From positions 43,974-107,973 of the forward strand of contig CAVOMQ010000003.1 in assembly GCA_963697065.1 (NCBI GenBank): a DNA stretch of 64,000 nucleotides. Direction: 5' to 3'. Origin of the DNA: an uncultured Gemmatimonadales bacterium. GTDB lineage: Bacteria > Gemmatimonadota > Gemmatimonadetes > Gemmatimonadales > GWC2-71-9. Shown here one piece after another: positions 6,783 to 54,892 of the stretch. The translations under genes and the position numbers were made by a program. Positions within the stretch are counted from its first letter, which is position 1. Every line of letters begins with the position of its first letter. Under the pieces are notes generated by a model. That model made no database searches and had not been told where the DNA came from. It saw nothing but the letters and a program-made list of their open reading frames with translations.

Positions 6783-7850
6783 TCAGAGCCGGCACCGCAG
6801 CAACGTCTGGAACCCATCATCCTGCGCCGCCCGGAGATAGAGGAGATCATCGTGCACGGCGAGCAGCGTCATTCCCGCCGGCACGGTCATCGTACGGATC
6901 ACGACGCCGACTGGTGACAGCTCTGTCCAGATCTCGGGACGTTCACCGAGGGTCGACCGGAGAACCCAGAAGCGATCGTGGTTGTCCATCAGGGCCTCGA
7001 AGGCCGCGGCAAAGAAGCGCGGCCTCGGAGTATCGGCCCGCAGCTTTGCCGCGGTCGCGGGATCGAGCCCCTTCACCATCGAGGCCAGAACGGTGTCGTA
7101 CTCCTGCGTCGTGACCGCCCTCGGCGGAAGCTCGACCGTGGTGTCGAGTACGGCGTCGCCGGCCGGATTCAGGCAGCTGAGGTGCAGGTCGGACGCCTTC
7201 CCCGGCACGACGACGCACCAACGCGCGGCGTCGGGGGTCCATGCGGCCAGGGCGAGCCGCATCGTGAACGGCCCAGCGCTGTGCGGATCGCCGGCGCGAA
7301 ATGTGTCGGGCGCCGCGACGTCGGCGAGCGTATCGGGTCGTTGGCCCTGATCGAACGCGAGAATCCGGACGTCGGGGATGGACACCAACGTCTGCGCGAG
7401 GCCCACCGACCGGCCGGAAGCGGTCCGGACCCAGCTTCCCGGCAATGGCGGCGTCAGCGTGCCGGCGTACCGGCCGTCGGCGGTGAAGGCGACGGACCGT
7501 CCCAGCCGATAGTCGCTCACCCAGAGGGTGTCAGCGACCCACCACGCGACACCGATCGAACGGAATTCGCCCGGCCCCTCCCCGCTACGGCCCACCACGG
7601 TGTCGTGTCCGTCGGTATCGAGATGGATGGCTGTCGGCCGCCTGCCGGCGCTCCATGCCAGCACGCCGTCGGGTCCCGGTGCGACCATACCGATCATTCC
7701 GTCTTCGGATTGTCGGGAGGCCACGGCGGTGTCACATCGGGACGCGTCCAACAGCGGAAGCGCCTGCGCGTCGGCGGGCGCGGAGTGTTGGCAGCCGATG
7801 AGCAGCGGCACGACGGCGCTGATTACGCCAAGGAATCGTCGGTTTCGCAT
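6783..7850 (-). CDS. 6-bladed beta-propeller lipoprotein
   Basis: Lipobox LLIGC; VGRSGEGPGEF and DTLWVSD propeller motifs; MDNHDRFWV near the C-terminus. Confidence 0.65.
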   Translation of the reverse strand: MRNRRFLGVISAVVPLLIGCQHSAPADAQALPLLDASRCDTAVASRQSEDGMIGMVAPGPDGVLAWSAGRRPTAIHLDTDGHDTVVGRSGEGPGEFRSIGVAWWVADTLWVSDYRLGRSVAFTADGRYAGTLTPPLPGSWVRTASGRSVGLAQTLVSIPDVRILAFDQGQRPDTLADVAAPDTFRAGDPHSAGPFTMRLALAAWTPDAARWCVVVPGKASDLHLSCLNPAGDAVLDTTVELPPRAVTTQEYDTVLASMVKGLDPATAAKLRADTPRPRFFAAAFEALMDNHDRFWVLRSTLGERPEIWTELSPVGVVIRTMTVPAGMTLLAVHDDLLYLRAAQDDGFQTLLRCRL

Positions 7851-8098
7851 TGGTTACGGTACGGCCCGGTACCGTCGGGGTCAACCGGCGGACAGCACCC
7901 GAAGGATTGCGGCTTGGCCAGCGGGTTTCAAAATGATCCAGCGCCGCGGCTTGGACGTTTTCCGATGGGCGCTGAATCTCCGTGATCGTCACTCCCGCGC
8001 CGCGTCAGGCCCCGGCAACGGGTAGCCAACGACGTCGGCGGACGACGCCCGCATCGACGGCATCCCGCGCAGAATCAGGAAGGAGTCGAACGGATCGC

Positions 8099-9310
8099 TC
8101 ACCTCTCAGGCGCCAGCTTGTACACGCGAACTTCCGATTCGTTCGGATGGTACGTATAGCGTGCGACCAGATATCCGTTGGCGATCTGGAGCACCTCCAG
8201 GTCGCCCGGCATAACAGTCGTACCGAGGAACCGCCCGCTACGATCAAACACGTCCCAGGTGGCCGGGTCGCCCGTCACCGCCCACATCCGAGCCCAGAGG
8301 CGGTGCGCATCGTCAACCTTCAGCGCGGTGTAGGCGGGCTCCCGCGGAGGAAATCGAATCCATTCGAGTGCCAGGCTGTCGTCATGCCTGAGCACCGGAT
8401 CACTCCGCTGGAGACGCGCCCGCTTGAGTCGCCGCAGCAGCTCCGGTGTCACCGATCCGCGCTCCCGCCCGATCCGGATCAGGCCCAGCAGTCTACCGGT
8501 GGGAGCGCGCTGCTGTATCTCGAACGCCGAGCCGTCCGTGTAGTACCACCAGTCGTCATCCACCGCAATGGAGCCGATCTGGCCGAGTGGCGTCTGGCCG
8601 GCGACGCTGTAGTGCATGGCGAAGCCGAAGCGCTCGGCCCCGAAGAACGGGCCGAGCTCCGTCAGCTTTCCTTTGCGATCGACGTGATAGACGACAATCG
8701 TGTCGATGTCGGTCTGGCGATTCTGAGGCAGGAGCTGATTGTGCGTCGTGCCGATCATCTCGCCCGACGCGAACGCGCCGAGGATCGACAGGAACGGTCG
8801 TTCCCACCCCCCTCGGGGGAGCTTCGAGCGAATGTCGGGCGGGTTCTCGACGCGGCGGGTTTGAAGGACGGAACCCCTGCGGCTCAGTTGCATCAGCCGA
8901 TTGGCCACCCCATCCCATTCCACCACCGTACCACCGGCCATCGTGAAGAGATTCGACGGCCCTTCGCGCCCCGAGATGCCGACGACGTCGATGCCGAATC
9001 GGTAGCCACCGTCAGGCTTGAAGAAGGCGACGCGATCGTGGTCGAATTCCGCCACCACGACATTACCGTCCATCAGCCGCAGCGCGCCGGAGACGATACC
9101 GAGGTCAGCGTTGCCTTTGGCGCCCGGCCCGCCCAATGCGACAATCGGAGCCGGCTCGACTACTCGCCAGCTGTTCGTGTCCAATATTGGCGCGGCGTTC
9201 GAGACGATTCTCACCCCAGCGCTATCCCGGACGCGTGGCAGCTGTGCGTGGCACCGACCAAGCCATGCCGCCAACATTACGCTCGCGCATACGAAGCGGC
9301 TAAGGGCCAT
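8099..9310 (-). CDS. 6-bladed beta-propeller secreted protein
   Basis: Signal peptide, VRDSAGVRIVSN, GREGPS, VDDAHRLWAR..WDVFDRSGRFLG motifs. Confidence 0.7.
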   Translation of the reverse strand: MALSRFVCASVMLAAWLGRCHAQLPRVRDSAGVRIVSNAAPILDTNSWRVVEPAPIVALGGPGAKGNADLGIVSGALRLMDGNVVVAEFDHDRVAFFKPDGGYRFGIDVVGISGREGPSNLFTMAGGTVVEWDGVANRLMQLSRRGSVLQTRRVENPPDIRSKLPRGGWERPFLSILGAFASGEMIGTTHNQLLPQNRQTDIDTIVVYHVDRKGKLTELGPFFGAERFGFAMHYSVAGQTPLGQIGSIAVDDDWWYYTDGSAFEIQQRAPTGRLLGLIRIGRERGSVTPELLRRLKRARLQRSDPVLRHDDSLALEWIRFPPREPAYTALKVDDAHRLWARMWAVTGDPATWDVFDRSGRFLGTTVMPGDLEVLQIANGYLVARYTYHPNESEVRVYKLAPER

Positions 9311-10076
9311 GTCGTGCACTCTGCAGCACCCGCCGGACAGTGTCAAGCCCGTAATCGGTCTTCTCAGCGTCTTGCAAGTCCGGTCTAACAGTCCTCCCAA
9401 GGAGGCTTGCAACGAGCCGGTTCAATTGCTGGAAGGGCATCGCACCGGCAACCGGCAGTCCGTTGATGAACGACGTTGGCGTTCCAACAATGCCAAGTTG
9501 TGCGGCTTCCCGGGTATCCCGATTCACCCTGTCCTGATACATCCCGGATTGGACGCAAATGCTGTAGCGCCTCATGTCTGGAATACGGATGCTGTCCCCA
9601 ATGTCGTGCCATGGCTCGTGCGTTACTGCGGTCGCTCCGAAGCTGAACGCCGCTCGATAGTACTCCGGGAATCTCCCCTGATCGGCTGCGCACTGGCCGC
9701 CCTCGTGTAGCTGGAGCTCGGCAAGCCCGGGTTGGAATAGGAGGTTCTTGACAACAACGGCAACCACATCGGGGTAGCGCCGCCGGAGCTTCTCGATTGT
9801 GGCAGAAAAACTCACGCAATAGCCACAGGCGTAGTTCACAAACTCGACGATAACGACCGGCGCGTCGTCCGGGCCCATCCGGGGTCCTTCGGCGGCCATT
9901 TGATAGAAGAGCGTCGGGTCTATGCTTCCGTCGGGCAGCGAGGGCAACGAGAGCCGCTGCGCGCTGCGGCGCCGTTGATAGGCTGCAACCCGGTCTCGAA
10001 TGCCCAGGATAACCAGCCCGAGTGCGACGACATACAGAATCTTCGTCGCGCGGTTAAGCATCTTGGCGATTGGCAT
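9300..10076 (-). CDS. DsbA-family thiol-disulfide oxidoreductase (module 1)
   Basis: GPDDAPVVIVEFVNYACGYC and GIVGTPTSFING motifs; N-terminal TM anchor. Confidence 0.85.
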   Translation of the reverse strand: MPIAKMLNRATKILYVVALGLVILGIRDRVAAYQRRRSAQRLSLPSLPDGSIDPTLFYQMAAEGPRMGPDDAPVVIVEFVNYACGYCVSFSATIEKLRRRYPDVVAVVVKNLLFQPGLAELQLHEGGQCAADQGRFPEYYRAAFSFGATAVTHEPWHDIGDSIRIPDMRRYSICVQSGMYQDRVNRDTREAAQLGIVGTPTSFINGLPVAGAMPFQQLNRLVASLLGRTVRPDLQDAEKTDYGLDTVRRVLQSARHGP

Positions 10077-10091: not shown

Positions 10092-11207
10092 TCACCTATG
10101 CGTCGAGGCCGCCACCCGCCGACCAGAGCTTACGGCGGGATTGGCTTCCAGGCGATATTCGAAAATGCCTTCGCCGTTCTGACCTGCAGCGAAGAGTGTA
10201 GTGTCACCCGAGACAGCAATGGTACTCATCTCGTGGTTCAGCCCGATCACGTTGACCAACTGCCCATCCCAGTCGAAGACGTGTACATACCTGGCCGCGC
10301 GTACCCTCCCTCCGTGGGGGCCGTCGGTTCGGTGGCCGGCGAATAGCGCGTAGAGATAGCGCGACGTTGCGTCGCAGTCGATGTAGTAGAACCAATCAGC
10401 CTGAGCCCACAACGTGTGCCGACGCGGAGACATCGCCCAGTCTCCGTTTGAGGCAAATGGTACGCTTGCACGAACCACGAACAGACCAGCTGAGTCGAAG
10501 ATGTCGATTCGGCCCCCGAGCTGGTACAGCACCGCAAATCGACGTGCGACGGGACTGGCGCATGCTGCGAATCCCCCCGATGCGGCACGGCGAGCCAGCA
10601 GTGGTATTGAATCGGCTCCGAGAAGCGCTGCATTGTGCATGGCCAACAAGTGGCCACTCGTATCCGAAATGATGATTCGATTCGTATCCATGTCGCCGAT
10701 GCCGACGAGTCGGTTGCGGGCAAGCCAGAGCAAAGCATATACGTCGACGAAGGCGCTCGGTGGATGGAATATCGCATAGTCGGCCGTTGGGCGACCGGTC
10801 TCCCGCGTCATCCGCTTCAAACCGTCGTCGTAAGCCCAGATTCCGGCGTCATCACCCGGACGATGGCTGAATTGTGGCATCTTCTTGAAGTCACCGGGTC
10901 CTTCCCCATGCCGCCCCATCGAAACTGAGACCTCGCCGGTTGCAATATCCACAGCGTGCAAATAGGGATCTCCGGAGCGATCACCTACCCATAGGCGATC
11001 ACCCTGGACGCCGAGGTGTCCCGGGTCACCAATGATCGGATCGGACACGAGCAAGCGAGGTTCGGGATACTGCGGATGAAGGTCGGCGTGGGAAATCGCT
11101 GGTGTGCCGTCAGCAAGGTGGTCCAAAGGCCAGCCGGACAAGGTAGCGTGCCGACATCCGGTTGCGAGCAGGAGCGTAACTGGCCCAAGTACCCGGAGCG
11201 CCGTCAT
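10092..11207 (-). CDS. BF3164/TolB-like 6-blade propeller lipoprotein (module 1)
   Basis: Lipobox LLATGC; GRHGEGPGDF; YLYALFAG..YVHVFDWDGQ C-terminal motif. Start uncertain (11207 or 11309). Confidence 0.7.
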   Translation of the reverse strand: MTALRVLGPVTLLLATGCRHATLSGWPLDHLADGTPAISHADLHPQYPEPRLLVSDPIIGDPGHLGVQGDRLWVGDRSGDPYLHAVDIATGEVSVSMGRHGEGPGDFKKMPQFSHRPGDDAGIWAYDDGLKRMTRETGRPTADYAIFHPPSAFVDVYALLWLARNRLVGIGDMDTNRIIISDTSGHLLAMHNAALLGADSIPLLARRAASGGFAACASPVARRFAVLYQLGGRIDIFDSAGLFVVRASVPFASNGDWAMSPRRHTLWAQADWFYYIDCDATSRYLYALFAGHRTDGPHGGRVRAARYVHVFDWDGQLVNVIGLNHEMSTIAVSGDTTLFAAGQNGEGIFEYRLEANPAVSSGRRVAASTHR

Positions 11208-12640: not shown

Positions 12641-12695
12641 GTGGCGTGGCGTGGCGTGGCGTGGCGTGGCGTGGCGTGGCGTGGCGTGGCGTGGC
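12641..12695. repeat. Pentanucleotide SSR (GTGGC)11
   Basis: 11 perfect units counted directly. Confidence 0.95.
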
Positions 12696-12700
12696 GTATA

Positions 12701-16241: not shown

Positions 16242-19200
16242 TCAGCGCGGCCGCTGATTGGTGCGGAGCTGCTGCCGCTGACCGGGTGTGAGGACGCTCG
16301 TCGCATTCGCGTAGTACCGGAGGTCCAGGGAGGACAACGCCTGCACCACCGGTTCCGCTCTTGCACGCAGTTCGGCATCCCCAAGCCGGGGCCCCGCGCT
16401 CACAACGAACAGGGCCAGAGGTGCGAGGAGCGCATCGGTTTCGCGCTGGTATGCTGCGCTCAACGTGGCTAGCGAGTCGAGCTGACGGCCGGTCAGGGCG
16501 ATAGCCGCGCCAGTCGTGATTATCCGTGATATCGGGTCTATTACCCACTCACGCCGCAGTGCGCTCATCGCCTGGCTGAGCCGCGTCGAATCACTCCCGT
16601 GCGCCGGTAAGCCAAGCGCCTTGAGGAGCGCGTGCGACTGGCCCTGCGGCCCGAAGTCATATTGGGCACCGAGCCGGATCTGAAATGGTGGGAAGTGCTT
16701 GCGAGTATCGCCGTACATCAGCGATTGACGAAAAGGGGGTTGACCGTGTAGCGGAATGACTCGGTAGCCGGATCGAAGCCCGTCACATACAGGAGTCGCG
16801 GATCCGGCTGCTGGACCCCAGAGAATCGCCCGAATGGCGTGCTCTGCAGATGCAGCAGGCTTACGATAGCGCCTCCAGCGTTTAGAAGCTGCGTAGTAAC
16901 TCTGAGTCGATCGGTCAGGCCAAATGAGGCTGGTGGGGCAAAATCGAGGTTAAGATCCAACTGAATTTGCCATGAGCTTCGGCAGCTCTCCGCCCCGGCA
17001 ACTCGCCCGATCTGCGCCTGAAGACATGCCCTCGCCGGAGTGGGCGCCGTTCTGAGCACACTGCGCATCTGCGCAGCCAAAGCGGAGTCGCTGACCTTTG
17101 CGGGGTCGAAGATGAATGCGGCGTCATCGCCCGATATATGGTCGCCGTTGACGTCGCCAGCGACCACCGGCGTGAATGGAATTCCTGACGTCATCTGGAT
17201 CCGAGCGCCAAGGGTAAACCACCAGACGCGATACCCAAAGGATCCGACCTATCAGCCGGTGGACGGGCCGATCATTGATCACCGTTTGCACGGCACGAGG
17301 ATCCTCCGGCGTACCCCGGCGTTGGACTTGGTCCAGGTTGAGGGAATACGTGACGTCGAGTGGGATATTCCCAAAGAGGGCTTCAGTTCCGACGTGCACC
17401 TCGACTTGCTCTGCCACCCCGTTCAAGTCCGACACCCACCGGGTCACGCTGGCGAATCTAGGATCCACCCGCGCAGTCCCCGGACCGATCAGCCCGGTCG
17501 TTGGATCGATGCCGGCCGGATCTGCGAAGACCGGACGTCCATCTTCCTGCTGCAGCCGGAACACCGGGGCTGCCGGAAGATTGAGATCGGTGAACGACTC
17601 GATGTGGCGTCGCAGCGCCAGGGCGACCTGCGGCTGCACCCCCCATTGGCCAAGCCGAAAGCCGGTCCCGACCGATGCCTTCCACATCAGGGGTGGGCTG
17701 TATCGGGGGTCAAGCAACTGTACGGACGGTACGCTCGCGGCGAATGCCGGCATCCCAGCACTGTCTGCGCAGGTTGCCGGCGGAGGGCCCGCCTGCCAAT
17801 TGGCGGCTGGAACTGCCGGCCCCACGCACGACAAGCTCTCGGGCGCACCCCGCAGGCCGGTATTCGCGCTGATGCCATCGAGTCGGCTCGGGGACACGGT
17901 TCCCCAATAGGCACCGAGGCTTCCGTAGACGACCTGACCGACCGGGCCGACGTTCTGGACAGTCACATCGTTTGGCCCCAGTACGCCCGCCATGTTTGTC
18001 ATCGTGTTGGTGCCAGGAATTCGCACCCGAACGAACGGCACCTGGCCCTTCGGTCGGTGCACGATCCAGGCGATTCCAATGCGCGGGGTGAGTTCGATCA
18101 CAGCAGGGACGTGATCCGTCCGGTACCCGAACACTGACTCGACAACCGCGTTCAACGGTGGGGTTGCGCCAACCGTGAGGTAGTCAGCGCGTAATCCAGC
18201 GTCAACACTGACCCGCCGGGAGGCTTCCCAGAGGTCCGCGATCCAGACGCTCGGATGCCACGTGACGACGCTCTGGCTGCTCGGATCCAGGAGTCGCGAG
18301 TACGCTCCGGGCTGGTTTTGCTCGAGTTCGGCGAGCGACAGGTAGGCGAACGTGCCGTTTGGATTCGCACCGTTCTCGGCTCGCGTCCGCTCGATCTGCA
18401 AATCCTCCCCCAATCGGACGTGGTGAACATTGCCGTAAAGCTGGCGGGCGAGTTCGTCACGCACTTCCACGCGGAGGGTCGAAGCGTCACTCTGCGCGCC
18501 CCCACCGCCGAATTGCACCGTCGTGCGATCCTGACTGCGCCGTGTCGAATACTGTACCGATCAACACGGATCCGGTCGGGGTCGCAAGCAACGGCTCTGT
18601 ACGGCGCGACGACCGCGTGACAGCAGCCCGGAAATCGTTGACAAAGCCACCCAGATAATTCAGCGCTGTCAGCGAATACCTGTTGACATCATCTCGCCGG
18701 GTAACGGCCGTCGTTGGATAGGCGGCAGTTCCCACGCCTCCGCCGCTCTCGCGATGCCAAGTCGGCCAAGCCGAAAGGGTGACCCGATTCGTTGACCCCG
18801 GTTCCCAATCGACACTGAAGAATCCAGCTGCATCGAGCGTCTGGTCCGACCCAACACCGCGGCTCGGACGCAACGGAATGCCGTGCTCGGACAGCGCGGT
18901 TGAGATGCTCGTAATCGAATCGAGCGCCAGGCCTCGCTCGGCGAGCAGTGGTTCTGGCGCATCGAGAATCGACCGCAGCGGCTGAGATTGGAGCATCGCG
19001 GTCCAGGAAGCAAAGAAATGCCCATCCAGCCACGGGATCGGTCCGGAAGCTGCGCCCGATGACAGGAATTGCCGTGATGCGGGAAACGGCGACGCCGGGT
19101 CCGTCCAGGCGACACGGGGGTCGCTGTACGCCGCCCGCCCGACGGCCGTGGCCGTATTCGAACCTCGCTTGAGCGTTACATCCAGTTCGGCGCCCGGATT

Positions 19201-19851
19201 CTGGCTATGAGCGACATCGGCCGTCGTGCTCGCGTAACGGATTGCCGCGATTGCGTCCGGCGGCAGCAGCCTTGCGTCGGCGCGCATGCCATCCACGACG
19301 ACCGCGTTCTGGTCTGCCGGCGCACCCAACAGACTGCTGCCGGAGTCCGTCACGGACGTCTGCCCCAGGGCGTCAAGCAGTTCGTTCAGATCGCCGGCTT
19401 GATTCAGGATCAATCGCCGGGTGATCACCAGATTCTCTGTGCCGCCGACCGCAGGCCGAAGCCGATCGGATGGGGTAGCGATGTGGTTCGTCGTTGCAAA
19501 TAGATCGGGGAGCTTGAAGGGCGCGGACCGAAGCATGGTGTCGGCGACAATGCGTGACGCCGCTGAAGAAGCACGAGCGGTCCAGCGAACCGGAACGTAG
19601 CCGATCTTTCGGACCAGCAGTACCACACTTGCGGCTCCGTCGAACAGCACAGCCCGATATGACCCGGTCGAGTTCGTGTGGGCGATCTGTCGCTCCGCCG
19701 CGCTCTGTACCGAGACTTCAGCATCCAGGATCGGCTGCCGCAACGAATCGGTAATCCGACCTTCGACGACAGTTGGTGCCTGCGCCTTGGCTGGGTACGC
19801 CAGTGAACATACCAATCCCAAAGTGGTGAGGCCGCGCGACAGCAGCACCAT
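16242..19851 (-). pseudogene. TonB-dependent receptor with carboxypeptidase-regulatory-like N-domain (Oar-like), split into 4 ORFs
   Basis: VEGRITDSLRQPILDAEV..RKIGY N-domain; barrel motifs (DAGLRAD, PRIGIAW, VAGDVNGD, QIRLG). Frameshifts near 18500, 17150 and 16730 may be assembly errors. Confidence 0.75.
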
Positions 19852-19853: not shown

Positions 19854-21011
19854 TCAGTGGCGAGGCAATCCGCTCACCCGGTAGCGAACAAGAGTCGCCC
19901 CCTTTGGGAGGACGCGGATGCCGACAAGTGTCGCGCCGCTGACCGCCTTCAGCATGACGTCGCTCGGCAGCTTCACCTGCCCAATCAGATCCCCGCTTGG
20001 GTCAAGAACCGACCACGCTCGCTCGGACCCCTTTCCGTACATCTCCACCCAGACGGACCCATCGTCGGAGACCAGCAGTGCCTGCAACGGCTGGTGGAGG
20101 CGAGCTGGAGAAGCCCGCAACGCACTGTCGATCTGTCGGTTGCGCCCGGGGAGTCGCTCTTCGTCGATCACCGCCGCGATGCCACTATCGAGCTCCGGCG
20201 CTGTGACCGGCGTCATACTGGTCTGAAAACGACACGCGTACGCAGTGTCACCCATTGCGTCCGTTCGGACGACCGTGAACCAACCGGAATCCGGGCCCGT
20301 CATGATTCCCCGGGCATTCACGACGGTCCTGCCATTCGCCGAGATGGCGGTGTAGGGAGGACGGCAGTAGGGGATGGGAATCCAGGAGCCATCCGACAGG
20401 GACTGCTCGCAGAAGACCAACCCGCTTCGGACTGATGCCGCGACGCTCCGATACGAACCATCCGGTGCCGAGACGAGAAGCACCGACGCAGTGCGTTCGA
20501 CGTCACTTCGCAGCGCCGGAATATTCTCCAAGATCAGAAGATCGCCATTGGGCAGATATCTGATTACGCTTGGACCGAACAAGCCGTTGTGAGCCTTCGG
20601 CTGCACGCCGGGGGGTCCCTGAACTGTGCGGGGGACTGGCATTGTGCGGGCGACCGATCCCCGTGTATCGAACAGCGTCAGTCGGGCGAGCCGGTTGTCG
20701 TAAGTCCAAATCGAGTCGCCGCGCCATCCGGCCGATGGGCTCGCTATGAACTGGCCGGGCCCATCACCTTGGGTTCCGACCGTTCGCACCCGAGTGCCGG
20801 TAGAATCCAATACGTAAAGGGAGTAGTGGAATGGACCCGTCAGGAGCAACGAACCATTAGGTCCCAAGGTGACGTAGGCAGTCGAATCGAAACCATACCG
20901 CGAGATGTCGATCGAGAGATCCGAAGCAACGCCAAGCGCCGGCGGCACTTGCGCCGAAGCAGAACGAAGGAGCCCGATGACAACCCCCGCAAGGAGGGTC
21001 GGGATTCGCAT
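19854..21011 (-). CDS. 6-bladed beta-propeller secreted protein (module 2)
   Basis: Signal peptide; VGTQGDGPGQF, GDSIWTYD, VSDDGSVWV..WSVLDPSG motifs. Confidence 0.7.
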   Translation of the reverse strand: MRIPTLLAGVVIGLLRSASAQVPPALGVASDLSIDISRYGFDSTAYVTLGPNGSLLLTGPFHYSLYVLDSTGTRVRTVGTQGDGPGQFIASPSAGWRGDSIWTYDNRLARLTLFDTRGSVARTMPVPRTVQGPPGVQPKAHNGLFGPSVIRYLPNGDLLILENIPALRSDVERTASVLLVSAPDGSYRSVAASVRSGLVFCEQSLSDGSWIPIPYCRPPYTAISANGRTVVNARGIMTGPDSGWFTVVRTDAMGDTAYACRFQTSMTPVTAPELDSGIAAVIDEERLPGRNRQIDSALRASPARLHQPLQALLVSDDGSVWVEMYGKGSERAWSVLDPSGDLIGQVKLPSDVMLKAVSGATLVGIRVLPKGATLVRYRVSGLPRH

Positions 21012-21505: not shown

Positions 21506-22186
21506 TTACGTTGACCGAGAACTTTGCCCAGCGGCCCTATGTAGGACGCGACGTACAATTTCGTCCAACCGCGCACTATCGAGAGCGCCAGTATAACGAA
21601 GCCCGTCGATGACAAGGGTCGGCGTCGCGTGAACCCCGGCTCGAACCGCCGCTATTGAATCCAGCGTGATCGCAGAAACAGGCGTCGATCGGTTGACGCA
21701 CGCAGCAAATGCGCCAGAATCCGTCACGCCAGCGTCGCGGGCGAAATCGGCAAAAGACTTCAGGCCCAGCGAATCCTGCTTCTGATACAATTCGTCATAC
21801 ATTGCCTCAAAACGATTCTGCGCTGCTGCGCATTCCGCGGCCCGGGCGCTAGCGTATGCGAAGCGGTGATATGGCAATGGGTAGTTCCGGAAAATGAGAG
21901 CAACTTGGCTGGGATACTCTGCATGAATTGCTCGAAATGAAGCAACAGCGAACGCACGGCAGGCCGGGCACTCGAAGTCACCGAACTCAATGATTGTCAC
22001 CGGCGCATGCAAGGGACCGATCCTGTGGCCGGCTGCGGCAAAGGTGAGCCAGTCGGAGATCTTCGTCGGCGCTTCCACCAGGGCTCTTGCACCCGCAGGC
22101 TTAGGCCAAAAAGTGCGCTTCACGCTGAGTCCGGTGGTGAAGACTGCGCAAACCGCTACCACGCCAATGACGACATTCGTCCTCAC
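21506..22186 (-). CDS. DsbA-family oxidoreductase (module 2)
   Basis: GPLHAPVTIIEFGDFECPAC, FRNYPLPYH, GVHATPTLVIDG; N-terminal TM. Confidence 0.85.
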   Translation of the reverse strand: MRTNVVIGVVAVCAVFTTGLSVKRTFWPKPAGARALVEAPTKISDWLTFAAAGHRIGPLHAPVTIIEFGDFECPACRAFAVASFRAIHAEYPSQVALIFRNYPLPYHRFAYASARAAECAAAQNRFEAMYDELYQKQDSLGLKSFADFARDAGVTDSGAFAACVNRSTPVSAITLDSIAAVRAGVHATPTLVIDGLRYTGALDSARLDEIVRRVLHRAAGQSSRST

Positions 22187-22214
22187 TTCGTTTCGTTCGA
22201 CGAAGTCTCTGCGG

Positions 22215-22310
22215 GGTGAGACTCGCCGCACTGAACACCTATCAATTCCCCGGATTCCGCCATACCAGAAAACAGCGCTTTCTGCTGCTTTTCGCCCAGT
22301 CACGCCTCGA
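22215..22310 (-). promoter_or_regulatory. Conserved intergenic element between AraC-like regulator and cargo (copy 2)
   Basis: Matches 11820-11914 (e.g. TCCCCGGATTCCGCCA.ACCAGAAAACAG.GCTTTCTGCTG.TTTTCGCCCAGT). Confidence 0.5.
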
Positions 22311-23104: not shown

Positions 23105-23109
23105 GTTCA

Positions 23110-47471: not shown

Positions 47472-48134
47472 TTGTTTGTACACCAGCAGGATCCGGATCC
47501 CCTGACCGCATTGGACATCGATTGCGTTGGCGCACTGCATGGGCGACTGCTCGCCGGATACCCTGAGGCGGGCCCCGAGATCGCGGCTATCGCCTACGGT
47601 CCGCTGGTCGAGTACCTCATCGCCCATCACCCTTGCGTTGACCCCGGCGCGGTTCACGACGCCGTGGCCGACGCGGTCGTTGCCTATCTCGACCGCCCGG
47701 CCCGGGCCAACGGGGTCGGCGGACGCCAGGTCATGGCGCATCTTCAGCTTGCCGCGTGGCGGAACATCCTGAACCATCGGCGCCGGGAAGGTCGGCTCAA
47801 GCGGCGTGAACAGCGTTACGCAGCCGACCTCGGCCGGCGGCGGCGCGATTCGGACCGGCGGGTTGTTGCTCTTCTGGGTTCCGCGGGGAAAGTATTAGAG
47901 GAGGCGATAGATCCGGGCGAGTCCGCGGAAGTGTCAGCGATGGAGCCCGCCGGGTGGAGCACCGAGGAACGGACCGTCTGGGTGCTCTTCCGGGCCGGCG
48001 AACGACGAACTGCGGAGTACGCCGCGGCGCTCGGGATCACGGGTCGGCCCGTGTCAGACCAGCGGGTGATCGTCAAGCGCATCAAGGAGCGGCTCCGGGT
48101 GCGCGTGAAGCGGGGGGGGGGGCGTAGACGATGA
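47472..48134 (+). CDS. ECF sigma-factor-like regulator, copy 1
   Basis: Region-2-like VHDAVADAVVAYL..HLQLAAWRNILNHRRRE and region-4-like ERTVWVLFRAG..EYAAALGI..VKRIKERLR; TGA overlaps the dsbA ATG. Start inferred. Confidence 0.65.
   Translation: MFVHQQDPDPLTALDIDCVGALHGRLLAGYPEAGPEIAAIAYGPLVEYLIAHHPCVDPGAVHDAVADAVVAYLDRPARANGVGGRQVMAHLQLAAWRNILNHRRREGRLKRREQRYAADLGRRRRDSDRRVVALLGSAGKVLEEAIDPGESAEVSAMEPAGWSTEERTVWVLFRAGERRTAEYAAALGITGRPVSDQRVIVKRIKERLRVRVKRGGGRRR
48112..48122 (+). repeat. G11 homopolymer at the 3' end of ECF copy 1
   Basis: Counted directly. Confidence 0.85.
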
Positions 48135-48982
48135 GGTTCAGCAACGGGATTACAAACGGCTTGATGGTTGTCTCGGTCGTCTGCGCCGTCAGTCTGACGG
48201 GTATGCAGGTTTGGGAGCGGTTCGGTCCGGCGGTGCCGCCCACTGGGCCGTCGGCGCTTCGTGGCGCCGACACGGTCCGCATTCCGGATTGGCAACACGA
48301 CACAGTCGGTGGCCATCATCTGGGACTCGCGACAGCTCCTGTTACGATCATCGAGTTCGCGGACCTCGAGTGCCCCGTATGCCGGCAGTTCACTATCGGT
48401 GCTTTGGCATACATACGTGCGAAATACCCAACGGATGTGCAAGTCGTGTTTCGCCATTGGCCACTGAGCTATCATCATTTCGCGTACCCCGCGGCGCGGG
48501 CCGCTGAGTGCGCGGCCGCCCAGGGGCGATTTGATGCATTCCAGCAGTTGGTGCACGCCAAACAGGACTCGCTGGGGCTGAAGGCGTTCGGGGACTTTGC
48601 CCGGGAGGCGGAAGTGCCGGATGCGCGGGCGTTCGCCACGTGCAATGCCCAAACCGGTCCCGTTGCAGCGGTCGAAGCCGATATCAACGTCGCGAAGGCC
48701 GTGGGCGGTCGGGGGACGCCGACCATCGTCATCAACGGCTTGCGGTTAACTGGTGCGCCCGATTCCGCCTCGCTCGGTCGGCTCATCGAATCCGCGTTGA
48801 AGCAAATCCACGTTTCCGGCGGTACCAGCCCCGGGAAGGGGATTTCCCGGACTCGGCTGGAGCTGCCAACTACCGGCACTCTCGATCACCTGGAAACGCC
48901 TGCGGCCGTGGCATCCAACATCTTCACGCCGAACCCGAATCACGCCATCGCAACGCCCGAAGGAACCATACTCAGGAGGTAA
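48131..48982 (+). CDS. DsbA-family oxidoreductase (module 3)
   Basis: GLATAPVTIIEFADLECPVC, FRHWPLSYH, GGRGTPTIVING; N-terminal TM. Confidence 0.85.
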   Translation: MRFSNGITNGLMVVSVVCAVSLTGMQVWERFGPAVPPTGPSALRGADTVRIPDWQHDTVGGHHLGLATAPVTIIEFADLECPVCRQFTIGALAYIRAKYPTDVQVVFRHWPLSYHHFAYPAARAAECAAAQGRFDAFQQLVHAKQDSLGLKAFGDFAREAEVPDARAFATCNAQTGPVAAVEADINVAKAVGGRGTPTIVINGLRLTGAPDSASLGRLIESALKQIHVSGGTSPGKGISRTRLELPTTGTLDHLETPAAVASNIFTPNPNHAIATPEGTILRR

Positions 48983-51933: not shown

Positions 51934-51962
51934 TTGACAGCCGTTCCCGGCGCAGGTATTAC
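51934..51962 (+). promoter_or_regulatory. sigma70-type promoter TTGACA-N17-TATTAC (copy 2)
   Basis: Read directly; same context as 47442-47470. Confidence 0.65.
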
Positions 51963-51963: not shown

Positions 51964-52615
51964 TTGCTTGTACACCAGCAGGACTTGGATCCCCTTGGCC
52001 GGACCAGACGTCGATCGCGCTGGCGCACTGCACCTGCGGCTGCTGGCCGGGCACCCCGAGGCGGGGGCCGGAATCGCGGCGATCGCCTACGGTCCACTGG
52101 TGACCTACTTGGGCTCCCGTTTCCCTTACGTTGACCCGGACGCGGCTTACGACGCGGTCTCCGACGCGGTCATGGCCTACCTCGAACAGCCGGCCCGGGC
52201 CAAGGCGGTCGACGGACGCCAGCTCATGGCCCACCTTCAGCTTGCCGCCTGGCGTAACATGTTCAACCGTTTGCGTGAGGATGGCCGGCGCAGGCAGCGC
52301 GAGCGGCGATACGGCGACGCCAGGAACTGGCGGCGGCTGGAGTCGGCGCGGCGTGTTGTTGCTCTTGTGGGTTCGGCGGGGAAGGTATTACAGGAGGCGA
52401 TAGATCCGGGCGAGTCCACGGAAGTGTCAGCGATGGAGCCCGCCGGGTGGAGCACCGAGGAACGGACCGTCTGGGTGCTCTTCCGGGCCGGCGAACGACG
52501 AACTGCGGAGTACGCCGCGGCGCTCGGGATCACGGGTCGGCCCGTGTCAGACCAGCGAGTGATCGTCGAGCGCATCAAGGAGCGGCTCCGGGTGCGCGTG
52601 AAGCGGGGGGGGGGG
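51964..52615 (+). CDS. ECF sigma-factor-like regulator, copy 2 (1-nt indel near 52000; stop position depends on G-tract length)
   Basis: Paralog of 47472-48134. With G11 the frame runs on into peptide P4; with G10 it would stop at TGA near 52657. Confidence 0.6.
52605..52615 (+). repeat. G11 homopolymer at the 3' end of ECF copy 2
   Basis: Counted directly. Confidence 0.85.
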
Positions 52616-52690
52616 CGCTGCGAGCAACGATCGTTGTGTTCGGAATACCGGTCTGTGAGATCATTGTTCAATTCCAGCAAGGAGCGTCAG

Positions 52691-52975: not shown

Positions 52976-53045
52976 TGATTCAAACCGACGTGACGACGTC
53001 CCGGTCGGCCGGTTCCGCGGCCGGGCGCCCGCGTCCGGCGGTGCG

Positions 53046-54194
53046 ATGCAACGCGTCCTCGTGAACGCGGTGAGTTTATGCGCACTTGCTGGTTTCGCCG
53101 CCGCCTGTGCCCGCGACGCCAAGTCTGGAGCGGCGGGCCCGGACCAGAATCAGGCCGACCTGTTGCCGGACGATCACTTGCACCCCGTGGTGGTATCGGG
53201 CAGGCTGCTGGTGTCAAGCACCGCGTTCGGACGGCCCGAGTACGCACTGACGCAGGGGAATCGGCTCTGGATCTCCGACCAGGCTGGCGACCCATACATT
53301 CACCTTATCGATATTTCGGGGCGCCGAATTGTCGCATCCTTTGGTCACACCGGTGTCGGGCCCGGGGACTTTGATCAGGGAATCTCCGGTCTGTCGCGAC
53401 GGCCTGGGGACGCCACCGCAGCCTGGGCGCTCAGTCTCGGTCTCCGGCGCCTCACGAGGGTGCCCGCGATCAGCGCCGACACCGTGGTCACAATTCCCCT
53501 CACTGCACCCCGCTTTGCCGATCATGCAGAGTGGCTTACACGGGGCCGCCTGTTGCTGATCGGCGAAACGGATACCAGCCGCTTCGTGCTCGCTGATTCC
53601 AACGGGAAGCCGCTCCGGGTTGTGTCGGGCGATCTGGTCGGCGGGGATTCCATTTCGCTGGCGACACGAGTGGACCGCTCGAGCGGCCTTTCGCTTTGCG
53701 TGGCACCTGACGGTGCCCGTTTTGCCGTCTTCTACATTCACGCCGGACGCATGGATCTCTATGACTCCAATGCCGCACTGATTCGCCATGGCGACGTGCC
53801 GTTTGCGATCAACGGCTCATTCCGGCGCGATTCCGCAGGCCGCTGGCACGCGCACGACATCCGCCGCTACTACGAAGCCTGCTCGAGCAGTTCGACCCGT
53901 ATCTACGCGCTGTTCAGCGGCAAGCGGCTCGGACCGCGGTACACCGGAGCTGACGTCGAAGCGCAGTTCGTGCACATCTTCGATTGGACCGGCCGGTTCC
54001 TGGGTGCACTGCACCTCGATCAACCCCTGGCCGGGATGACAACGAGTGGCGACAGCGTGATGTACGGCATCGGGGCCGATGGCAGCCGGATCTATTCGTA
54101 CCGGCTGCCGTCGTTCAACTCCGCCCCAGCGGTGTCCGTTACGCCGACGAAGTCTAGCGGACTACTATTCGACGCCGGGGCCTCCTTATGGTGA
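53046..54194 (+). CDS. BF3164/TolB-like 6-blade propeller lipoprotein (module 4)
   Basis: Lipobox FAAAC; FGHTGVGPGDF; RIYALFSGK..FVHIFDWTG; paralog of 10092-11207. Confidence 0.7.
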   Translation: MQRVLVNAVSLCALAGFAAACARDAKSGAAGPDQNQADLLPDDHLHPVVVSGRLLVSSTAFGRPEYALTQGNRLWISDQAGDPYIHLIDISGRRIVASFGHTGVGPGDFDQGISGLSRRPGDATAAWALSLGLRRLTRVPAISADTVVTIPLTAPRFADHAEWLTRGRLLLIGETDTSRFVLADSNGKPLRVVSGDLVGGDSISLATRVDRSSGLSLCVAPDGARFAVFYIHAGRMDLYDSNAALIRHGDVPFAINGSFRRDSAGRWHAHDIRRYYEACSSSSTRIYALFSGKRLGPRYTGADVEAQFVHIFDWTGRFLGALHLDQPLAGMTTSGDSVMYGIGADGSRIYSYRLPSFNSAPAVSVTPTKSSGLLFDAGASLW

Positions 54195-54892
54195 AGGTCC
54201 ACATGATGGCTCGGTCGCACGATTGGGTGACAATCGTGCTGTTGCTCGTGGCAGGAATACTCGGCGGGTATGCGGCCTATGTACGATTCGGACCAGGACA
54301 GGGTGCCCGCGGCGACGAACCGGCATCAGCGCAATATGGCCGAGTTGGCGCGGAACGCTTCCGGCGTGCTGCCGAGACTGGGGATCGCATCGGACCGGAG
54401 AATGCCCCGATAACCGTCGTCGTCTTCTCCAACTACCTTTGTGAGTACTGCCGACGGTTTGAACCGACCCTGACACAACTCCATCATCGATATCCCGACG
54501 AGGTCGCGATCGTCTGGAAACACTACGCTCCCCTTCTTACACGCCGAGCATCAACGGTCGACCTCGCGGCCGACTGTGCGGCGGATCAAGGGGATTTCGC
54601 GCCGTTCAATCATGCCCTGTTCACCGACACACTTGTGGCACGCGTGCCGGACCGATGGCTGCGTATCGGTCAGCGCATCGGGATCGACACCGCAACCATG
54701 GCCGGATGCATTCGGTCGCGACGCCATGCCGCCGACGTAATGCACGACACGGAGGAAGGGCAGGCGCTGGGCGTGACAGGCACGCCGACCTCGTTCATCA
54801 ACGGCGTTCGCATCGTGGGCCAGGTACCATTCGACATCCTGGACTCAGTCGTATCGTCGCAACTTCGTAGCGGGCGGCCCAGTACAAAGTGA
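54188..54892 (+). CDS. DsbA-family oxidoreductase (module 4)
   Basis: GPENAPITVVVFSNYLCEYC, GVTGTPTSFING; N-terminal TM. Confidence 0.85.
   Translation: MVKVHMMARSHDWVTIVLLLVAGILGGYAAYVRFGPGQGARGDEPASAQYGRVGAERFRRAAETGDRIGPENAPITVVVFSNYLCEYCRRFEPTLTQLHHRYPDEVAIVWKHYAPLLTRRASTVDLAADCAADQGDFAPFNHALFTDTLVARVPDRWLRIGQRIGIDTATMAGCIRSRRHAADVMHDTEEGQALGVTGTPTSFINGVRIVGQVPFDILDSVVSSQLRSGRPSTK

Follow-up and report, generated by a model that had tools for sequence, protein, structure and literature searches.

A private thioredoxin-fold enzyme encoded beside a cysteine-rich ribosomal peptide is a hallmark of several bacteriocin loci, such as those of sublancin and the bacteroidetocins, in which a private oxidase folds a peptide toxin. 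Peptide bacteriocins are mostly cationic. Small proteins that are very acidic and tightly folded typically serve as inhibitors or in immunity, as the colicin Im proteins and barstar do, and acidic disulfide-rich pheromones are known from ciliates. The window analyzed here, the whole stretch of 64,000 nucleotides from a soil Gemmatimonadales genome, contains four modules (M1 to M4), and at least six further such modules are located elsewhere in the same genome, which carries many swappable cassettes. Each combines genes for a tiny exported, acidic and disulfide-rich protein, for a disulfide-forming enzyme of its own and for a partner that is exported as well. This combination is conserved in the class holding this genome, and it was described neither in the literature searched, as far as this was searchable, nor in the family libraries searched. 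The observation behind the original prediction was confirmed with corrections, and its interpretation was partly supported.

Architecture of the modules

The window had been described as carrying one module repeated four times. All four peptide/DsbA operons were present, with tight, operon-like spacing between their genes, but they follow two architectures: type A, with the gene order peptide, propeller, DsbA (M1 and M4), and type B, with the order DsbA, peptide, partner (M2 and M3) (Table 1). Gene order co-varies with DsbA clade and peptide type, and the four modules combine two cargo types with two regulator types in a 2 x 2 arrangement.

Table 1. Genes of the four modules, with positions in the window and the main features of their products.
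Module	Product	Position	Strand	Features
M1	Regulator-like orphan, 223 aa, C-terminal HTH-like segment	11915..12586	-	Weak HTH_28, 15-18 bits, below cut-off
M1	P1, type A mini-protein precursor	11306-11581	-	91 aa; mature 59 aa, 6 Cys, pI 4.3
M1	Propeller lipoprotein 1, TolB_like/BF3164 family	10092..11207	-	PF15869 35.4 bits (cut-off 29.2)
M1	DsbA, clade A, CGYC	9300..10076	-	Thioredoxin_4 63.9 bits, DSBA 48 bits
M1	Propeller-family protein 2	8099..9310	-	hhalign 98.9% vs M2 propeller family, 97.1% vs M1 propeller 3 family
M1	Propeller-family lipoprotein 3, LLIGC lipobox	6783..7850	-	hhalign 100% vs M2 propeller family, 92% vs TolB_like family
M2	Regulator-like orphan	22311..22982	-	Paralogue of M1 regulator, 68% identity
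M2	DsbA, clade B, CPAC	21506..22303	-	Thioredoxin_4 100 bits; true start codon uncertain, may be near 22198
M2	P2, type B mini-protein precursor	21167-21463	-	98 aa; 8 Cys in mature part
M2	Propeller-family protein, type I signal peptide	19854..21011	-	hhalign 94% vs TolB_like family
M2	TonB-dependent-receptor-like outer-membrane protein	16242..19851	-	OMP_b-brl_4 32 bits (above 30-bit cut-off)
M3	Divergent ECF-sigma-like protein, 220 aa	47472..48134	+	hhalign and AlphaFold2 fold
M3	DsbA, clade B, CPVC	48131..48982	+	Thioredoxin_4 86.7 bits
M3	P3, type B mini-protein precursor	48985-49278	+	97 aa, GTG start, 2 nt past dsbA stop; 8 mature Cys
M3	Exported orphan partner, 703 aa	49366..51477	+	Weak GWxTD-like signal
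M4	ECF-sigma-like protein	51995..52650	+	75% identity to M3 regulator
M4	P4, loosely type A mini-protein precursor	52691-52975	+	94 aa, 6 mature Cys; own AAGGAG and ATG
M4	Propeller lipoprotein, TolB_like family, FAAAC lipobox	53046..54194	+	38% identity to M1 propeller 1 over 325 aa
M4	DsbA, clade A, CEYC	54188..54892	+	Thioredoxin_4 66.6 bits, DSBA 61.9 bits; start overlaps propeller stop by 7 nt

Mini-proteins

The four peptide open reading frames were found as originally described, with a length of 91-98 aa, a Shine-Dalgarno site, a signal peptide, an even number of cysteines (6 or 8) and an acidic product. A GGAGG-like site is located 6-9 nt 5' of the start codon in all four, and a proline stands just ahead of the AxA motif in each signal peptide (TPVLHA, TPALA, PPTAQA and QPSKARA). 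The 11 peptide copies of this genome all have a pI of 4.05-4.5 and 6 or 8 cysteines, contain only 0-4 Lys + Arg residues each, and are strongly anionic. Type B peptides have a conserved 8-Cys framework in common, and type A peptides have a separate framework and a C-terminal SG[IV]N..DW motif, which is clear in three of six aligned sequences. Homologues of P1 were found beside a propeller and a DsbA gene at C1:557013 and in genomes G013, G012 and G020.

No family in Pfam or NCBIfam was matched by the peptides, and the suggested likeness to the NVEALA proteins of Bacteroidota was not borne out, as none of the peptides matched PF14055. The AlphaFold2 model of P3 (pLDDT 78-92 across the mature part) had no structural match in PDB or BFVD, so that the fold gives no functional hint. 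The best-matched orthologue pair is under purifying selection, with a pN of 0.13 in the mature part, saturated pS and indels of whole codons. No RNA run containing the locus was found.

DsbA genes and their linkage to the mini-proteins

All four DsbA proteins scored above the curated Pfam cut-offs for Thioredoxin_4 and DSBA, and each has an N-terminal transmembrane helix, a CxxC motif and an ordinary, complete DsbA-type periplasmic domain. The M1 and M4 enzymes are 37% identical and those of M2 and M3 49%. The genome encodes one VKOR and no DsbB.

The 3.18-Mb genome was scanned for secreted open reading frames with at least six cysteines and a Shine-Dalgarno site. The scan yielded 11. Six of them have a DsbA gene at a distance of less than 700 bp, in neighbourhoods that make up 0.85% of the genome (P=1.7e-10), and eight are within 1.3 kb, in DsbA operons (P=1.7e-13). 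Such a peptide is present at 10 of the 13 DsbA-like loci of this genome. The survey of DsbA neighbourhoods for adjacent Cys-rich open reading frames, proposed earlier as a check, covered public genomes and found the pairing at 9 of 21 Gemmatimonadota loci versus none of 59 in other phyla (P=1.3e-6), with a heuristic under which only about half of the clade B DsbA loci in Gemmatimonadota showed a peptide. A DsbA gene is located directly upstream of three of five independent metagenomic peptide homologues, two metagenomic peptides have no adjoining DsbA, and in one relative a single DsbA gene is followed by two tandem peptide genes.

At the propeller loci of relatives, peptide and DsbA were either both present (3/3) or both missing (6/6), so that the adjoining DsbA is specifically linked to the peptide, in agreement with the earlier proposal of a dedicated enzyme. 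The propellers in the window contain only 0-4 cysteines, which makes the peptide the obvious candidate for the substrate of the module DsbA.

Exported partners

The proposed link to the BF3164 propellers of Bacteroidota holds at the family level. Propeller 1 of M1, whose N-terminus LLLATGC is lipobox-like, matched TolB_like, and its close relatives are named 'BF3164 family lipoprotein [Gemmatimonadales]' by NCBI. The M4 propeller scored 16-17 bits with PF15869, below the cut-off. Propellers 2 and 3 of M1 and the propeller of M2, the last with weak DUF5128 and TolB_like hints, had no match in Pfam, but profile-profile comparison showed that they share homology among themselves and with the TolB_like family. 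In relatives, propeller 2 directly follows propeller 1 even at loci without DsbA and peptide.

The TonB receptor predicted for M2 is receptor-like, with a CarboxypepD_reg match of 25 bits (below cut-off), but is split into four open reading frames (18487-19851, 17124-18518, 16718-17194 and 16242-16718). M3 does lack a propeller, as reported, but encodes in its place a 703-aa exported partner. This protein had no match in Pfam (TIGR04514 GWxTD_dom, E=0.036) and belongs to a family with at least nine copies in this genome; paralogues follow peptides on contig C5, and homologues do so at metagenomic loci (708 aa; 604 and 712 aa) and in genome G018.

A propeller or 600-700-aa family gene was located within 2.5 kb of eight of nine peptide loci, versus three of 12 peptide-free DsbA loci. 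An exported partner is thus linked to the peptide, as had been expected. No recognized immunity gene was found. The association is not universal, and many propeller and 600-700-aa paralogues are encoded far from any peptide. The pI of the partners varies between 5.2 and 9.9, some partner paralogues carry up to 9 cysteines, and neither the propellers nor the 600-700-aa family could be placed in a catalytic family.

Regulator-like genes

The regulators of M1 and M2, which have three more paralogues on contig C5, had been called AraC-like; this family assignment was wrong, as hhalign gave 0.1% against the AraC proteins of this genome and only the weak HTH_28 match was obtained. The assignment of the M3 and M4 regulators to the ECF sigma factors was supported by profile comparison and predicted fold but lies under every HMM threshold, and an ECF identity is plausible. 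The M3 regulator had no match in Pfam or NCBIfam; hhalign against the ECF sigma factors of this genome gave a collinear 45%, and the top Foldseek matches of its AlphaFold2 model (pLDDT 78.5) were mostly ECF sigma factors (sigma2: TMt 0.75, rmsd 2.7 A). The M3 gene has a G11 tract at its end, its stop codon overlaps the dsbA start (ATGA), and the M4 sigma-like open reading frame, as assembled, has no stop before P4 and runs in frame into P4 past a G11 tract. Regulator class tracks the integration site (comM, cinA or a PhzF-like gene) and not the cargo type; the regulators look as if they belonged to the cassette chassis and were not specific to the peptides.

Mobility and divergence of the cassettes

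The GC content of the modules is 58-64% versus 68% for the genome, and the modules form tandem arrays with repeated comM, cinA and PhzF-like 3' ends. Their occurrence is patchy, with the propeller in 13 of 25 genomes of the genus and the clade B DsbA in 45 of the 251 genomes sampled from the phylum. In two of three matched cassettes the peptide diverged faster than DsbA and regulator, and the partner did so as well in the pair C5b and G018 (identities: regulator 83%, DsbA 85-90%, peptide 54%, partner 53%). Between M3 and G018 (regulator 57%, DsbA 60%, peptide 38%, partner 61%) the partner was as conserved as DsbA, and co-divergence of peptide and partner is therefore not general; between M1 and G013 the peptide (41-49%) was about as conserved as DsbA (46%), so that the distinction between chassis and specificity genes fails in this pair.

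Possible functions of the modules

We favor, with moderate confidence, the explanation that the modules are mobile, polymorphic envelope cassettes in which a mini-protein, folded by a private DsbA, acts with a co-encoded partner. Each module would be carried as cargo by a mobile gene cassette and would encode a self-contained extracytoplasmic unit, and its first gene would be a private promoter-proximal regulator, a divergent ECF-like sigma factor or an orphan HTH protein, presumably driving the operon. The small precursor would be exported via Sec, and after removal of the signal peptide the neighbouring membrane-anchored DsbA, recycled by the single chromosomal VKOR, would oxidize the 6 or 8 cysteines to 3 or 4 disulfides, which would give a mini-protein of 50-70 aa that is compact and very acidic. 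The folded mini-protein would act, most likely through binding, with the exported product of the neighbouring gene, a lipoprotein of the TolB_like/BF3164 six-blade-propeller family or a 600-700-aa orphan; peptide and partner would form a fast-diverging specificity pair, and DsbA and regulator a more conserved chassis. As the cassettes are patchy, multicopy and low in GC and form tandem arrays at the 3' end of conserved genes, we infer a strain-variable envelope function, probably in contacts with other microbes or with phages, be it recognition, protection or antagonism, and not in housekeeping.

If the modules instead encoded Sec-dependent bacteriocins, on the model of the sublancin and bacteroidetocin loci, the peptide would be a secreted toxin and the propeller or 600-700-aa protein would serve for immunity or receptor masking. 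The private thioredoxin-fold enzyme adjoining a Cys-rich peptide, the multicopy, polymorphic, patchy and mobile modules, the fast divergence among paralogous peptides and the tandem peptide genes behind one DsbA are consistent with this. However, all 11 peptides are anionic (pI about 4), they lack a family match, the modules are devoid of ABC/PCAT exporters, lysis genes and other routes across the outer membrane, the module proteins tested had no match in PADLOC or PHROGs, and 380-700 aa is unusually large for an immunity protein. The strong acidity, the missing exporter in a diderm and the lack of a recognized immunity gene make a poor fit to a classical bacteriocin, which we consider rather unlikely, and the even Cys count beside an oxidase argues against free-thiol metal binding, as in a metallophore. 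The roles might also be reversed, the large exported protein being the active part, as an enzyme, adhesin or effector, and the disulfide-stabilized acidic mini-protein its periplasmic inhibitor, chaperone or immunity factor. The mini-proteins fit the description of small, acidic, tightly folded inhibitors, their genes are usually directly upstream of the partner gene, and the two diverge jointly in one matched pair of cassettes; the lack of an assignable catalytic family, the many partner paralogues without a peptide, and the range of partner pI, which gives no consistent charge complementarity, make this reading unlikely.

A role in signalling, with an exported pheromone-like mini-protein sensed via the propeller or TonB-like receptor and acting in a feedback on the private regulator (sigma or HTH), would account for the regulator-like gene at the start of every cassette, the ECF-like sigma factors of M3 and M4 and the receptor gene of M2, and has a precedent in the ciliate pheromones, but it is improbable, given that the modules lack an anti-sigma factor, a sensor kinase or a transducer domain, that regulator class follows integration site across the 2 x 2 arrangement, and that the TonB-like gene is found, split, in one module of four. 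It is quite improbable that DsbA is a general oxidase of the island, or the peptide a mere abundant substrate or thiol-redox buffer, with no specific peptide-partner function: the complete, ordinary periplasmic domains and the Cys-rich partner paralogues would allow it, but DsbA tracks the peptide and not the propeller (3/3 versus 0/6), the propellers of the window are poor in cysteine, and DsbA clade co-varies with peptide type. That the peptides are chance open reading frames in GC-rich DNA, or pseudogenes, is already very unlikely. Their GC3 of 0.67-0.77 is below that of typical genes of this genome, and a codon-based gene caller missed P1 and P2, but the low GC3 is common to the whole cassette, DsbA genes included. 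The conserved Cys frameworks, the Shine-Dalgarno sites, the strong enrichment beside DsbA genes and the purifying selection with whole-codon indels in one orthologue pair support the view that the peptides are real, exported, disulfide-type mini-proteins.

Results

Architecture and genomic setting of the modules

All four modules (M1 to M4) were found in the window where the original prediction had placed them, but its description of one module repeated four-fold gave way to two cargo architectures crossed with two regulator types. In type A (M1 and M4), the gene for a 6-Cys peptide is followed by genes for a TolB_like lipoprotein and a clade A DsbA, and in type B (M2 and M3) a clade B DsbA gene is followed by genes for an 8-Cys peptide and a partner, that is, an exported protein encoded beside the peptide, either of the propeller family or a 600-700-aa orphan. 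The regulator is an HTH orphan in M1 and M2 and a sigma-like protein in M3 and M4, and its class goes with the insertion site and not with the cargo type. Gaps between genes are operon-like; the gene for P3, the M3 peptide, starts 2 nt past the dsbA stop codon, and the propeller stop and dsbA start of M4 overlap by 7 nt. Module GC content is 58-64%, compared with 68% for the host assembly (3.18 Mb in five contigs, C1 to C5), and the relatives of the window are named Gemmatimonadales metagenome-assembled genomes. With every gene accounted for, no transporter was present in the four modules, and PADLOC and PHROGs models matched none of ten module proteins.

Further modules and loci in this genome were detected by tblastn and by a scan of DsbA neighbourhoods. 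The tandem array that contains M1 and M2 is delimited by three comM 3'-end copies, a pattern suggestive of repeated integration at a single site; the comM-bounded cassettes contain no recombinase gene. M3 and M4 are flanked by an esterase gene and cinA, and their junctions are duplicated. In a third array, on C5, each unit consists of genes for an HTH orphan, DsbA, a peptide and a ~610-aa protein, and the last ~85 codons of a PhzF-like gene are repeated twice. On C1, a stray comM 3' fragment far from comM lies beside a DsbA-peptide pair, an XRE-like and a propeller-like gene, and two genes that look transposition-related and were read from their sequences as IS21-type (istA/istB). It is suggested that cassettes travel along with a fragment of the target gene.

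Locations of the features discussed (positions without a contig name are window positions)
Feature	Location	Strand	Description
P1 (M1 peptide)	11306-11581	-	91 aa; 6 Cys in mature part; upstream GGAGGG
P2 (M2 peptide)	21167-21463	-	98 aa; 8 Cys in mature part; upstream GGGAGGG
P3 (M3 peptide)	48985-49278	+	97 aa; 8 Cys in mature part; upstream AGGAGG
P4 (M4 peptide)	52691-52975	+	94 aa; 6 Cys in mature part; upstream AAGGAG
M3 partner	49366-51477		703-aa exported orphan
Other members of 550-800-aa orphan family	C1:1007907-1009934; C5:75715-77568; C5:79990-81801; C5:85281-87044; others
M2 TonB-like receptor	16242-19851	-	split into four consecutive ORFs
G11 tracts	48112-48122 (M3); 52605-52615 (M4)		end of sigma-like genes; identical
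TTGACA-N17-TATTAC	47442-47470; 51934-51962		5' of sigma-like genes
Direct repeat	12641-12759; 23050-23168		5' of HTH-orphan genes; 82% identity
comM 3' ends (Mg_chelatase_C)	12816-13382; 15293-15860; 23214-23699		three direct copies; 87-97% identity
comM 5' part	~23171-24642		intact
Further module	C1:557013-560423		P1-like peptide, propeller, DsbA, propeller 2
Further module	C1:1001422-1003547		DsbA, peptide, propeller
Further module	C1:533490-536270		DsbA, peptide, propeller-like protein; adjoins another comM 3' fragment
Further module	C5:68187-70473		peptide, DsbA, propeller
Further module	C5:74067-77568		HTH orphan, DsbA, peptide, ~610-aa partner
Further module	C5:78136-81801		HTH orphan, DsbA, peptide, ~610-aa partner
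Further locus	C2 ~61-65 kb		remnant, IS-disrupted
Further locus	C1:1013789-1015211		peptide and propeller, without DsbA
Third array	C5:72672-82169
PhzF-like 3' repeats	C5:77672-77935; C5:81909-82169
First-unit DsbA of third array	C5:74735-75375		frameshifted
Region of stray comM fragment	C1:531812-538435		fragment at C1:531812-532240
VKOR	C1:1201215-1201595		single copy; 76.6 bits
DsbA with extension (L149)	G270:C1:1912351-1913724		relative from another family of the class

Regulatory genes

The regulators of M1 and M2 had been called AraC-like, a designation that was not upheld: HTH_18 (PF12833) was unmatched, HTH_28 remained under threshold and hhalign against the AraC proteins of the genome gave 0.1%. 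The two HTH_18 matches of the genome, true AraC proteins, are located elsewhere. Each HTH-orphan gene is preceded by a copy of a direct repeat whose ORFs encode a run of pentapeptides (HATPRHATPRHATPR...), implying a 15-nt period.

For the first genes of M3 and M4, originally designated ECF sigma factors, the proteins fell under all HMM thresholds, but profile collinearity, the structural model and structural matches favored the designation. No match to the sigma-like proteins was found in Pfam/NCBIfam, including Sigma70_r2 (PF04542) and region 4 (PF08281/PF04545), and the 18 Sigma70_r2 matches of the genome do not include the sigma-like protein. The family profile aligned collinearly with 12 ECF sigma factors of this genome over residues 31-222 (hhalign 45%, E=2e-4). 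An AlphaFold2 model (pLDDT 78.5) predicted a two-domain helical layout of sigma2 and sigma4, and its top Foldseek matches were mostly ECF sigma factors, with target-length-normalised TM-scores of 0.75-0.76 for sigma2 (rmsd 2.7 A) and 0.47 for sigma4, all at E-values >0.1. Just two non-self homologues were found among 5.8 billion proteins. No anti-sigma gene is located beside the sigma-like gene; the next gene encodes DsbA, whose cytoplasmic tail is ~10 aa. The first gene of M3 and M4 probably, if not provenly, encodes a divergent ECF-like sigma factor.

Both sigma-like genes end in a G11 tract. In M3 the tract is followed by a stop codon that overlaps the dsbA start (ATGA), while the M4 ORF has no stop and reads past the tract in frame into P4; G10 instead of G11 would put a stop near 52657. 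The sigma and DsbA orthologues of the relative G018 likewise form one reading frame, joined behind a run of Gly codons. The tract may be a site of recombination or of phase variation, or an assembly error in a homopolymer. A conserved sigma-70-promoter-like sequence is located 5' of both sigma-like genes, and because it overlaps the predicted start codon (47472), either translation or the transcript may in fact begin elsewhere.

Peptides

The peptides matched their original description (91-98 aa, strong ribosome-binding site, Sec signal with Pro and AxA, even number of Cys, acidic). Shine-Dalgarno-type sites are located 6-9 nt 5' of the start codons, the signal peptides have Pro a few residues ahead of AxA, and the mature parts have a pI of 4.05-4.5 with at most four Lys and Arg. 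The framework common to type B peptides is C-x6-8-C...DPxxxC...C...C-x5-C-x7-9-C, after which comes an aromatic residue. An AlphaFold2 model of P3 based on 12 aligned homologues had a pLDDT of 78-92 across the mature part and predicted one strand, two helices and a beta-hairpin; a fold search of PDB and BFVD with this model gave nothing significant (best E-value ~0.1, TM-scores <=0.44).

No Pfam family, PF14055 (NVEALA) included, matched P1, P2 or P3, or P4 scanned as an ORF tail. A PF14055 search of the whole genome also gave no match, but 14 named control genomes were equally unmatched and the search is hence uninformative. When 5.8 billion proteins were searched by word index, only the peptides of this genome and one from G018 were recovered, and exhaustive profile searching of 1.84 billion representatives yielded 12 matches, five of which were new peptides; a 443-aa repeat protein among the 12 was spurious. 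Because members of the family have diverged too far for such searches, neighbourhood surveys were used instead.

DsbA proteins and their re-oxidation

All four DsbA assignments held. The proteins scored 64-100 bits against Thioredoxin_4 (PF13462, cut-off 23.2) and 29-62 bits against DSBA (PF01323, cut-off 25.6), retained CxxC motifs (CGYC, CPAC, CPVC and CEYC), and each has an N-terminal hydrophobic or membrane anchor, from which an extracytoplasmic location is predicted. At least 10 peptide-linked DsbA copies are present in the genome. Since the genome encodes a single VKOR and lacks DsbB, that VKOR must serve every DsbA copy. The peptide is the obvious candidate substrate of its private DsbA, because the propellers have just 0-4 Cys.

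Propellers and other partners

The propeller assignments of the original prediction were retained on evidence of different kinds. M1_prop1, the first of three propeller-family genes in M1, matched TolB_like (PF15869) by HMM at 35.4 bits, over the 29.2-bit cut-off. The M4 propeller stayed under that cut-off (16-17 bits) and was assigned by its 38% identity with M1_prop1. The M2 propeller and M1_prop3 had no Pfam match and were assigned by profile-profile comparison with the TolB_like family (94% and 92% probability, respectively), as was M1_prop2, whose direct comparison gave 10.9% but which reached 97-99% against the families of the M2 propeller and M1_prop3. Close relatives are named "BF3164 family lipoprotein [Gemmatimonadales bacterium]" at NCBI. 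Family membership suggests a six-bladed beta-propeller fold. Lipoboxes were found in M1_prop1 (LLLATGC), M1_prop3 (LLIGC) and the M4 propeller (FAAAC); M2_prop and M1_prop2 look as if they have type I signal peptides instead. PDB sequence searches with the propeller, the sigma-like protein and the HTH orphan gave nothing significant.

M3 had been described as having no propeller, and it indeed lacks one, but it does encode a partner, an exported orphan whose GWxTD-like signal is weak (E=0.036) and which has at least nine paralogues or copies in the genome. The 550-800-aa family of exported orphans had no Pfam match beyond a weak GWxTD_dom signal. In this genome and in metagenomes, such orphans recur directly 3' of type B peptides. 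The 600-700-aa family was also considered as a propeller, but hhalign against all propeller families gave at most 1.2% and the two are hence unrelated. The M2 gene described as a TonB receptor is TonB-dependent-receptor-like in domain content (CarboxypepD_reg and OMP_b-brl_4) but not intact, and the split gene is either a pseudogene or the product of frameshift errors in the long-read assembly.

Linkage of peptide, DsbA and partner genes

The whole genome was scanned for secreted ORFs with at least six Cys and a Shine-Dalgarno site, using relaxed composition filters because the low GC3 of the cassettes made a strict GC3 filter miss all real peptides. Six of the 11 ORFs obtained were within 700 bp of one of 13 DsbA-like loci (P=1.7e-10), and eight were within 1.3 kb (P=1.7e-13).

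Of 25 genomes in the genus, 13 had the TolB_like propeller; 16 genomes sampled from other families of the order had none. At nine propeller loci of the genus, a P1-like peptide and DsbA were jointly present in three and jointly absent in six (Fisher P=0.012), indicating that DsbA tracks the peptide and not the propeller; in 5/6 of the loci free of both, propeller 2 directly follows propeller 1. A Cys-rich secreted peptide, detected heuristically, adjoined 15 of 30 clade B DsbA loci of relatives. The five new peptides from the profile search are metagenomic; DsbA is directly upstream of three, and a large gene is directly downstream of four (708 aa; 604 and 712 aa; 391 aa; and one clipped by the contig end).

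A cross-phylum survey used a clade B DsbA profile on one genome per species of bacteria and archaea. Among the best 80 loci (21 in Gemmatimonadota, 59 in other phyla), a secreted ORF with at least six Cys was adjacent on the same strand at 9/21 Gemmatimonadota loci and at 0/59 others (Fisher P=1.3e-6), and peptide-DsbA adjacency is conserved beyond this genome. A homologue of the propellers or of the 600-700-aa family was located within 2.5 kb at 8/9 Gemmatimonadota loci with a peptide, compared with 3/12 without (P=0.0075). In the phylum sample, clade B DsbA occurred in 45/251 genomes and 25/106 genera, with up to seven copies per genome, and all positive genomes belong to the same class as this genome. 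The carriers so far are uncultured, metagenome-assembled genomes. No RNA runs with the locus were found, its sole holders being soil and sediment DNA metagenomes from a single study.

Divergence and selection

Peptide paralogues within this genome share 18-33% identity, with the cysteines kept. Between a C5 peptide and its G018 orthologue, mature pN was 0.13 while synonymous sites were saturated, which indicates that selection acts on the protein. For C5b, one of the C5 modules, identity to G018 was 83% for the regulator, 85-90% for DsbA, 54% for the peptide and 53% for the partner; for M3 and G018 the corresponding values were 57%, 60%, 38% and 61%. The peptide thus outpaces DsbA in divergence in both comparisons, and the partner does so in the C5b comparison only. 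Between M1 and the relative G013 (DsbA 46%, peptide 41-49%, propeller 1 62%, propeller 2 36%), the peptide is conserved about as well as DsbA.

Discussion

The observation behind the original prediction was confirmed, with corrections to the architecture, the regulators, M3 and the M2 receptor, and its interpretation was supported in part. Most economically, each module can be read as a mobile extracytoplasmic unit in which Sec would export the peptide, the private DsbA would form 3-4 disulfides, and the folded acidic mini-protein would then work with the co-encoded exported partner. An interaction function that varies between strains is suggested by the patchiness, multiplicity and mobility of the modules and by the rapid divergence of peptide and partner.

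A dedicated DsbA beside a Cys-rich substrate is an arrangement of a known kind, to which the modules add a new peptide family and an unexplained partner. Substrate-dedicated DsbA paralogues include DsbL/DsbI of uropathogenic E. coli, which serve a beta-propeller arylsulfate sulfotransferase, and SrgA, which serves PefA. Helicobacter DsbI bears a propeller itself (PMC4597128). The modules resemble these loci in having an extra DsbA-type oxidase beside a presumed exported substrate and a beta-propeller in the locus, but here the presumed substrate is a 50-70-aa mini-protein and not the propeller, no private DsbB/DsbI is present and the units are multicopy and mobile. In Bacteroidota, genes for small exported NVEALA proteins adjoin those for six-bladed BF3164/TolB_like/DUF5128 (PF17170) propeller lipoproteins, a family much expanded in gut Bacteroidota and uncharacterised. 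The proposed likeness to this linkage stands for the propeller family, which is shared (M1_prop1 by PF15869, relatives by NCBI naming), and for the placing of a small exported protein gene beside a member of an expanded propeller family, but not for the peptides, which are non-NVEALA, contain 6-8 Cys behind a classical Sec signal and come with a private DsbA. The first genes of M3 and M4 probably resemble ECF sigma factors (group IV sigma-70) in their predicted domains and collinear profile and differ from them in falling under family thresholds and lacking an adjacent anti-sigma gene. Literature searches on BF3164, DUF5128, the Pfam accessions and Gemmatimonadota DsbA/cysteine-rich proteins gave no description of the module among searchable papers, and no paper mentioning NVEALA was found.

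Several bacteriocin loci carry their own thiol-disulfide oxidoreductase, such as sunA-sunT-bdbA-sunS-bdbB of sublancin 168, those of the bacteroidetocins, and pediocin with PedC. Like these loci, the modules are mobile or accessory elements in which a ribosomal Cys peptide is paired with its own thioredoxin-fold enzyme. Oxidoreductase-linked bacteriocins, however, have double-glycine leaders, ABC exporters and immunity genes and are mostly cationic, whereas the modules have a Sec signal, a pI of ~4 and a large exported partner, and the combination of ABC/PCAT exporter and immunity gene expected of such a locus was not found in the four modules. Evidence against a classical bacteriocin comes from the strong acidity, from a diderm host without an exporter and from the lack of any known immunity gene, although it is conceivable that the partner acts as an immunity protein. 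A serious rival is the reverse assignment, in which the peptide is an inhibitor or immunity factor and the partner is the active component. A metallophore is unlikely, as the Cys number is always even, an oxidase adjoins, a recurring metal-type motif is absent and a receptor gene occurs in one module.

The reading of the modules as mobile extracytoplasmic units can be extended to a more specific proposal, which is tentative and in our estimate rather unlikely to be right: that Gemmatimonadetes possess lineage-restricted, undescribed plug-in envelope cassettes whose peptides and partners are polymorphic ligand-receptor or effector-protector pairs for inter-strain recognition or antagonism. Each cassette would then bring a private sigma or HTH regulator, a private DsbA, a hypervariable conotoxin-like disulfide mini-protein and its cognate exported partner. 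New specificities would arise as cargo is swapped at fixed points of recombination, for example the G11 tract ending the sigma gene, and conserved genes, comM and cinA among them, would collect tandem cassettes at their 3' ends.

If the reading of the modules as mobile extracytoplasmic units holds, the peptides would constitute a new family of ribosomal, Sec-exported, disulfide-knotted mini-proteins with no Pfam/NCBIfam family and no PDB structure match, and the genome would offer the clearest case yet of substrate-dedicated DsbA paralogues multiplying in one genome. The modules would also give a first functional handle on the large BF3164/TolB_like propeller family, and compact disulfide scaffolds with a matched foldase would be of interest to peptide engineering.

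Additional DsbA loci

A DsbA-propeller fusion was not confirmed here. At L149, in the relative G270, DsbA has a 220-aa beta-rich C-terminal extension cut short by an IS4-like transposase gene, with propeller genes on either side; hhalign of this extension against the propeller families gave 0.2%. Elsewhere, long open frames at DsbA matches represented the sigma-DsbA read-through in G018. In a second family of the same order (loci L026, L148 and L150), DsbA is flanked by what appear by eye to be carboxypeptidase-regulatory-like N-termini and not propellers. A single DsbA gene of G013 is followed by a tandem pair of paralogous genes for 8-Cys peptides of 77 and 82 aa (L073/L024).
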